This document shows, piece after piece, positions 34,959 to 35,058 of a DNA stretch of 64,000 nucleotides (positions are counted from its first letter, which is position 1; each line of letters begins with the position of its first letter). Source of the stretch: Escherichia coli (GTDB taxonomy: Bacteria; Pseudomonadota; Gammaproteobacteria; Enterobacterales; Enterobacteriaceae). Location: NCBI RefSeq assembly GCF_003334315.1, contig NZ_QOWR01000020.1; one strand, 5' to 3'. Below the pieces are notes generated by a model that made no database searches, was not told where the DNA came from, and worked only from the letters and a program-made list of their open reading frames with translations. The translations under genes were made by a program, and so were the position numbers.

Positions 34959-35058
34959 TGCCGGATGCGGCGTGAACGCCTTATCCGGCCTACAAGTTCG
35001 TGCAAATTCAATAAATTGCAATATGACGTAGGCCTGATAAGCGTAGCGCATCAGGCGA
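34959..35058. repeat. BIME/RIP-type element between yiiX and metJ
   Basis: GCCGGATGCGGCGTGAACGCCTTATCCGGCCTAC ... linker GCAAATTCAATAAATTGCAATAT ... GTAGGCCTGATAAGCGTAGCGCATCAGGC. Confidence 0.8.

Follow-up and report, generated by a model that had tools for sequence, protein, structure and literature searches.

A single-copy BIME-1 (RIP/RIB) element in the predicted loop of the metJ terminator, present in about half of Escherichia coli genomes

Background

The anatomy of BIME-1, a composite of REP sequences in Escherichia coli, has been known since 1991-93. The element also goes by the names RIP, reportedly introduced by Oppenheim et al. in 1993, and RIB, which is said to come from Boccard and Prentki in the same year. 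REP hairpins protect upstream mRNA from 3'-5' exonucleases, and WATCAANNNNTTR is the consensus for IHF. Inverted REP pairs with a spacer are also described as REPINs, a term that was coined for Pseudomonas.

Three REP types, y, z1 and z2, are distinguished in E. coli; BIME-1 elements combine z1 and y, occur as single copies and have a long, well conserved L linker in which an IHF site is frequent, and BIME-2 elements combine z2 and y in tandem with short linkers (Ton-Hoang et al., PMC3333891). The same classes are used by Nunvar et al., who, with reference to Boccard and Prentki 1993, describe IHF as interacting with the sequence between the REPs of BIME-1, and who treat the REP doublets of other bacteria as analogous to the E. 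coli BIME-1 (PMC2817692). That BIME-1 copies can be present in some isolates and missing from others was described earlier (PMC1187871, citing Bachellier et al. 1997), and a link between BIMEs and Rho-dependent attenuation has been drawn (Espeli et al. 2001). A non-autonomous nature has been proposed for REP/BIMEs, and TnpA_REP of E. coli, a Y1 transposase associated with REPs, acts in vitro on single-stranded BIME DNA, which it cuts and rejoins at CT dinucleotides (PMC3333891).

The present analysis concerns a REP-linker-REP sequence located between yiiX and metJ in a 64,000-nucleotide stretch of E. coli DNA, hereafter referred to as the window. With a probability of about 0.88, this sequence is a single-copy BIME-1 (RIP/RIB) that carries a near-consensus IHF site in its L linker, lies in the loop of the metJ terminator and is present in about half of E. 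coli.

Methods

All coordinates refer to the window and equal the MG1655 (NC_000913.3) coordinate minus 4,092,992, an offset that was checked against the yiiX start and the printed Term-seq sequences. The 801 nt surrounding the element show 100% identity to E. coli K-12 MG1655-type genomes. Positions of the yiiX ORF (34294-34902, minus strand) and the metJ stop codon (35086-35088, minus strand) were taken from the list of open reading frames, with which the MG1655 annotation agrees. REP and repeat features are absent from the MG1655 RefSeq feature table as retrieved, and neither metJ nor yiiX is mentioned in the RepRanger and TERMITe supplements.

The REP hairpins were folded and compared with shuffled controls, and the expected numbers of pattern matches were obtained by dinucleotide shuffling of the window sequence. 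For the fold of the complete K-12 spacer, the input was the metJ-sense RNA between the stop codon and yiiX. In the complete E. coli genomes, the filled allele was scored by a junction-specific 49-mer at the left junction and the empty allele by a 49-mer spanning the uninterrupted site.

Results and Discussion

Components of the element and its class

The metJ and yiiX genes are arranged in tandem on the minus strand, with metJ upstream, followed by the element and then by yiiX. The element is extragenic, being situated in the 3' region of metJ and upstream of the yiiX start, and its spacer contains one Y and one Z1 REP as a single unit, with no tandem array. The Y-type REP (GCCGGATGCGGCGTGAACGCCTTATCCGGCCTAC, 34 nt, 34960-34993, plus strand) has 0 mismatches to the pattern used, folds into a hairpin of -20.9 kcal/mol (z -4.0) and ends with CTAC on the plus strand, toward the linker. 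The Z1-type REP (GCCTGATGCGCTACGCTTATCAGGCCTAC, 29 nt, 35028-35056, minus strand) is inverted with respect to Y, begins with GTAG on the plus strand, again toward the linker, has 0 mismatches to the Z1 pattern and folds into a hairpin of -13.5 kcal/mol (z -3.1). The two are joined by an L linker of 34 nt (34994-35027, plus strand), which is weakly self-complementary (TGCAA...TTGCA) and has a core common to three elements of the window. The REP-linker-REP description that a sequence-only reading had given for 34959-35058 agrees with these components, and the linker string quoted there, GCAAATTCAATAAATTGCAATAT, is present between the REPs at 35002-35024.

Comparison of filled and empty genomes (see below) indicates that the inserted unit is larger than the REP pair, spanning about 128 nt (approximately 34935-35062) and extending about 25 nt beyond the originally described interval on the yiiX side. 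The yiiX-side flank (25 nt, 34935-34959, plus strand) accompanies the REP pair in filled genomes, is missing with it from empty ones and includes a perfect 6-bp hairpin formed by ACAACG (34940-34945) and CGTTGT (34950-34955) around TGCT, and the metJ-side flank, GATTCC (6 nt, 35057-35062, plus strand), is also part of the inserted segment in the alignment of filled and empty alleles. In a comparison covering the window and 100 kb beyond, the yiiX-side flank is identical to the flank of the pfkA-sbp copy at 17 of 24 positions and is absent from the gldA-yijF and ubiA-plsB copies; it may correspond to one of the external motifs that Gilson et al. reportedly defined for BIMEs in 1991. The metJ stop codon is separated from the Z1 REP (35056) by 29 nt, which places this REP outside the range of about 15 nt from a stop codon within which, as Liang, Rudd and Deutscher reportedly found in 2015, a REP lowers translation.

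Within the linker, ATTCAATAAATTG (35006-35018, plus strand) agrees with the IHF consensus at 8 of its 9 specified positions, a match of sequence with one mismatch, and the placement of the IHF-like site is the same in each of the three L linkers that the window contains. The sequence features of BIME-1, namely a Y REP with an inverted Z1 REP, an L linker of about 34 nt, an IHF match, a single copy and an extragenic location 3' of a transcription unit, are all found here, and in an identity check the REPs and the linker could be aligned with other BIME-1 copies. The presence/absence among strains that is reported for the class also matches the behaviour of the yiiX-metJ copy. The class is long known and the yiiX-metJ copy is a textbook example of it, with no defining difference. 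The differences are local, in that the element lies within the loop of a terminator hairpin and not beside it, and in that its 25-nt flank with the small hairpin is common to the pfkA-sbp copy but not to all copies.

The BIME-2 elements, including the naRNA4 type (REP325-type Y-l-Z2 arrays), share the Y REP and the REP/BIME superfamily with the yiiX-metJ element, but they have Z2, short linkers and tandem arrays and are a gyrase target, whereas the present element is a single Y-L-Z1 unit. The Rfam naRNA4 model scores 38.7 bits against the element, below its gathering threshold of 59.5, and aligns over the Y half only, which supports Z1 rather than Z2 as the second REP. The Z2 in the naRNA4 model is longer than the Z1 of the element.

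Another Rfam family, RF02751 or ES036 (CssrF), matches 34994-35035 on the plus strand with 39.6 bits against a gathering threshold of 37.6 and the pfkA-sbp linker with 46.2 bits. Two scores above the threshold would be in keeping with the linker being an independent ES036 small RNA gene, transcribed from the plus strand and antisense to metJ and yiiX, but this is considered very improbable. The family consensus consists of the L linker and the first bases of the Z1 REP, that is, of the repeat itself, and the third linker of the window (44831-44865) scores below the gathering threshold. The promoter scan revealed no promoter-like site, and the Term-seq tables list no plus-strand 3' end within the element. 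ES036 was named at another locus from a 43-nt RNA-seq fragment (MG1655 740211-740253) without a mapped transcription start site, which its authors regarded as possibly a processed fragment of a longer transcript (PMC4676190). Its likeness to the yiiX-metJ linker would reflect the repeat and not a shared small RNA function, and the Rfam match is accordingly read as detection of the BIME-1 repeat, not as evidence for a small RNA gene.

Related copies and other REP elements in the window

Two sister elements with the same Y-linker-Z1 organisation are present in the window, one between pfkA and sbp in the opposite orientation (15542-15639) and the other between gldA and yijF (44797-44894). The 20-nt linker core TGCAAATTCAATAAATTGCA recurs at 15579-15598 with 1 mismatch and at 44838-44857 with 2 mismatches, in each case between a Y and a Z1 REP, so that the core identities across the window copies are 20/20, 19/20 and 18/20; the ubiA-plsB copy has 19/20. 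A lack of similarity between the linkers had been named beforehand as the result that would refute a common identity, and the aligned cores differ by 1 and 2 bases. The proposal of a RIP/BIME-1 with the architecture of the pfkA-sbp element is borne out by the Y REP, the Z1 orientation and the homologous linker, and over 116 nt the two elements are 90% identical column by column. This identity, together with 0.00 matches expected for each of the Y, Z1 and linker-core patterns in the shuffled windows, leaves no room for a chance cluster of palindromes without family relationship.

Among genomes sampled down each match ranking, coverage of the pfkA-sbp copy was complete without exception; the gldA-yijF copy, present in nearly all, was fully covered in most, with a minority allele about 55 nt longer. 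The gldA-yijF element is flanked on one side by the hairpin AACTCCCGG-ACAAG-CCGGGAGTT, whose 3' arm recurs on the opposite side as GGGAGTTT.

The region 60354-60701 contains 2.8 tandem copies of a 123-bp unit, each with a Y REP (60421, 60544 and 60667) and a second palindrome, and looks like a BIME-2-type or atypical array. A BIME-2-type REP pair at 10481-10558 (minus strand) matches Rfam naRNA4 (the Y-l-Z2 BIME unit) with 78.6 bits against the gathering threshold of 59.5. At 39331-39390 (minus strand), between a metL-like ORF of 810 aa and the next plus-strand ORF, a decayed Y REP (TTGCCGGATTCGTCGTAAACGCTTAATCCGGCCTAA) precedes a degenerate L linker (TGATAATTCAATATATTTCA), and no Z1 REP is present; the sequence looks like the remnant of a fourth BIME-1. 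Rfam matches above the gathering score were also observed for the ClpQY (hslVU) promoter element at 29293-29350 (minus strand) and for the L31 ribosomal-protein leader upstream of rpmE at 33962-34014 (plus strand).

Location with respect to the metJ terminator

The empty site reads TAAAGCGGAAAAGAGCGGCGCGGAGTTAACCAGCCGCTTTTTTCATAC in the metJ sense. In O157:H7, AAAAGAGCGGCG...GCCGCUUUUUU forms a predicted stem of 12 bp (-21.6 kcal/mol, z -3.7) with a U6 tract behind it, and this succession of an A-tract, a GC stem and a U-tract directly after metJ is read as the intrinsic terminator of metJ, in canonical form. The two halves of the terminator are contiguous in the empty sites examined in O157:H7, AVS0935 and Escherichia sp. 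MOD1-EC7003, and Escherichia sp. E1V33 has a sequence variant of the 5' half. In K-12, the 5' half (AAAAAAGAGCGGCGCGGAGT in the metJ sense, minus strand) is found at 35063-35082 and the 3' half (ACCCACCGCUUUUU in the metJ sense, minus strand), which is homologous to AACCAGCCGCTTTTTT of the empty sites, at 34921-34934. Alignment places the extra DNA of K-12 between GAGT and ACCAG, in the hairpin loop, where about 128 nt replace TA; besides the loss of TA, two small changes fall in the 3' half, the junctions showing the loss of one G and one substitution. Judged by this alignment, the element is inside the loop of the putative metJ terminator hairpin.

In the predicted K-12 fold, AAAGAGCGG..G.GG.GUGG is paired with CUGC..CCC.CCGCUUUUU around the whole element, and this closing stem bounds a junction of four hairpins, namely Z1, the L linker, Y and the small hairpin of the flank (-66.5 kcal/mol, z -3.8). 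The closing stem is predicted to persist when the A/U tracts are left out (-60.4 kcal/mol, z -4.1), and a similar closure is predicted for the allele of E. whittamii. The K-12 form would thus differ from an ordinary intrinsic terminator in having its stem halves about 128 nt apart, separated by a structured insert, with a long-range stem that closes a junction. A pattern-based terminator scan gave no site in the spacer, as is expected for a split stem. A purely local terminator in K-12 was considered and appears unlikely, as the hairpin adjoining the U-tract has 3 bp only and the 6-bp hairpin (34940-34955) is 14 nt away.

The sequence-only reading had placed the element between convergent genes and had suggested on that ground that it may be a 3' stabiliser or terminator-associated element. 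The association with a terminator is partly supported, for a reason other than the one given, the element being embedded in the loop of a hairpin that, with its U-tract, is intact in empty-site genomes, and an RNA 3' end lying past that U-tract. The convergent arrangement was abandoned because the ORF strands and the MG1655 annotation place both genes on the minus strand. The gene convergent with yiiX is rpmE, on the opposite side of yiiX from the element; it has a separate terminator, and its 3' end maps to MG1655 4127267. The split terminator, bordered by an A-tract and, at its opposite end, a U-tract, resembles a bidirectional terminator, as would suit a shared 3' element serving both yiiX and metJ; with the two genes in tandem, however, and no plus-strand transcription unit ending at the element, such a role is hardly credible.

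Distribution of the filled and empty alleles

In K-12, 183 nt separate yiiX and metJ, as against 59 nt in O157:H7 and AVS0935. The filled, K-12-type junction was found in 2815 of the 5426 complete E. coli genomes (about 52%), once per genome, and the empty, uninterrupted site in 2549 (about 47%), so that the two counts together account for 5364 genomes. Among the matches listed, BL21 and an O103:H2 strain are filled, and O157:H7, O145 and UPEC132 are empty.

Outside E. coli, a degenerate 27-nt pattern for the 3' end of metJ retrieved four loci from a genome contig collection, a number too small for phylogeny; the scan returned no E. coli or Salmonella representative, and absence from it does not mean absence from a species. 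Escherichia sp. E1V33 and MOD1-EC7003 are empty with the hairpin intact. E. whittamii (L006, 6494-6680) is filled, with the same junctions as K-12 and four differences within the element, which include two non-compensated changes in the stem of the Z1 REP (GCCCGATG...CAGACC), and with an extra AG at the metJ-side junction. Its 60 nt on the yiiX side are the same as in K-12, and the nearby yiiX coding sequence differs by about 7%.

Origin of the insertion

As far as the sequences indicate, the most economical history is one insertion into a pre-existing terminator loop, since the empty sites in three Escherichia lineages keep the hairpin and the filled alleles share their junctions. IS200/IS605-type enzymes, to which the REP transposase is related, excise seamlessly, and some of the empty sites could therefore be secondary losses. 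The filled allele is common to E. coli and E. whittamii, which implies that the polymorphism is old or that it was moved by recombination. The yiiX-metJ element resembles the REPINs (RAYT/TnpA_REP) in being an inverted REP pair with a spacer that behaves as one insertion/deletion unit, but differs from them in that mobilisation of this copy by TnpA_REP is presumed; no demonstration of in vivo transposition of BIME-1 by TnpA_REP was found in the publications consulted.

RNA 3' end and probable consequences for metJ and yiiX

An RNA 3' end, which may reflect either termination or trimming as Term-seq does not distinguish the two, is listed at 34917 on the minus strand (MG1655 4127909), downstream of the element, with a read count of 26039 in the LB OD 0.4 sheet (Adams et al. 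2021, eLife, PMC7815308, Supplementary file 1). It is classed there as 'orphan' because its distance from the metJ stop codon exceeds 50 nt, is the sole Term-seq 3' end listed between metJ and yiiX, and is missing from the M63 and LB OD 2.0 sheets. The mapping of the coordinate was verified from the printed sequence, the end falling between ...GACCCACCGCTTTTTATAC and ATGGACGTTT, just after the U-tract; it is 9 nt beyond the stem's 3' half, and 14 nt separate it from the yiiX ATG, a position that coincides with the ribosome-binding region of yiiX. The same tables contain strong 3' ends at 35479-35482 on the minus strand, 76 nt upstream of the metJ start (MG1655 4128471 and 4128474), and a Rho-dependent termination region inside yiiX at 34519 on the minus strand (MG1655 4127511) (Adams et al.).

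The simplest reading is that the metJ transcript traverses the whole element and ends at the original U-tract. The element would then be transcribed as the tail of the metJ mRNA, which could acquire its end by termination at the long-range stem or by exonucleolytic trimming back to it, the old U-tract being still in use because the halves of the split stem pair again around the element. The 3' end of this mRNA would be shielded from 3'-5' exonucleases by the REP hairpins, and the DNA of the L linker may be bound and bent by IHF.

Given the distance of 14 nt from the 3' end to the yiiX ATG, expression of yiiX would depend on read-through of the element structure. The promoter scan found no promoter-like site in the metJ-yiiX interval, which, in combination with a 3' end at the yiiX ribosome-binding region, suggests that yiiX mRNA must cross the structure. 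A rival possibility, that the element is mainly an IHF-dependent upstream regulatory region or promoter for yiiX, could draw on the location of the IHF-like site about 100 nt upstream of the yiiX ATG and on the alteration by the insertion of the whole yiiX upstream region in comparison with empty-site strains. It is nevertheless judged to have very little chance of being correct, as no sigma-70-like promoter was detected on the minus strand of the interval, the same linker occurs at many unrelated loci, and the empty strains keep yiiX with 59 nt in front of it that are nearly all terminator.

With the terminator split by the element and the 3' end so close to the yiiX start, metJ mRNA stability and the extent of read-through into yiiX could, under the preferred reading of a BIME-1 within the metJ terminator, vary between the filled and the empty allele. 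A common natural regulatory polymorphism of this kind is a tentative suggestion, and on balance a doubtful one.

Conclusion

Catalogues of BIME-1/RIP elements in E. coli K-12 go back three decades, and the yiiX-metJ copy has little discovery value; its allele dimorphism and its position in the terminator loop are tidy details that are unsurprising for a BIME-1. As Rfam ES036 is the BIME-1 linker, matches to that family are to be read as copies of the repeat and not as small RNA genes. The locus is a clean natural example, with filled and empty alleles at nearly equal frequencies, junctions within the terminator loop and a 3' end that is already mapped, and its alleles are usable to measure the effect of a BIME-1 on termination, mRNA stability and the expression of the next gene.
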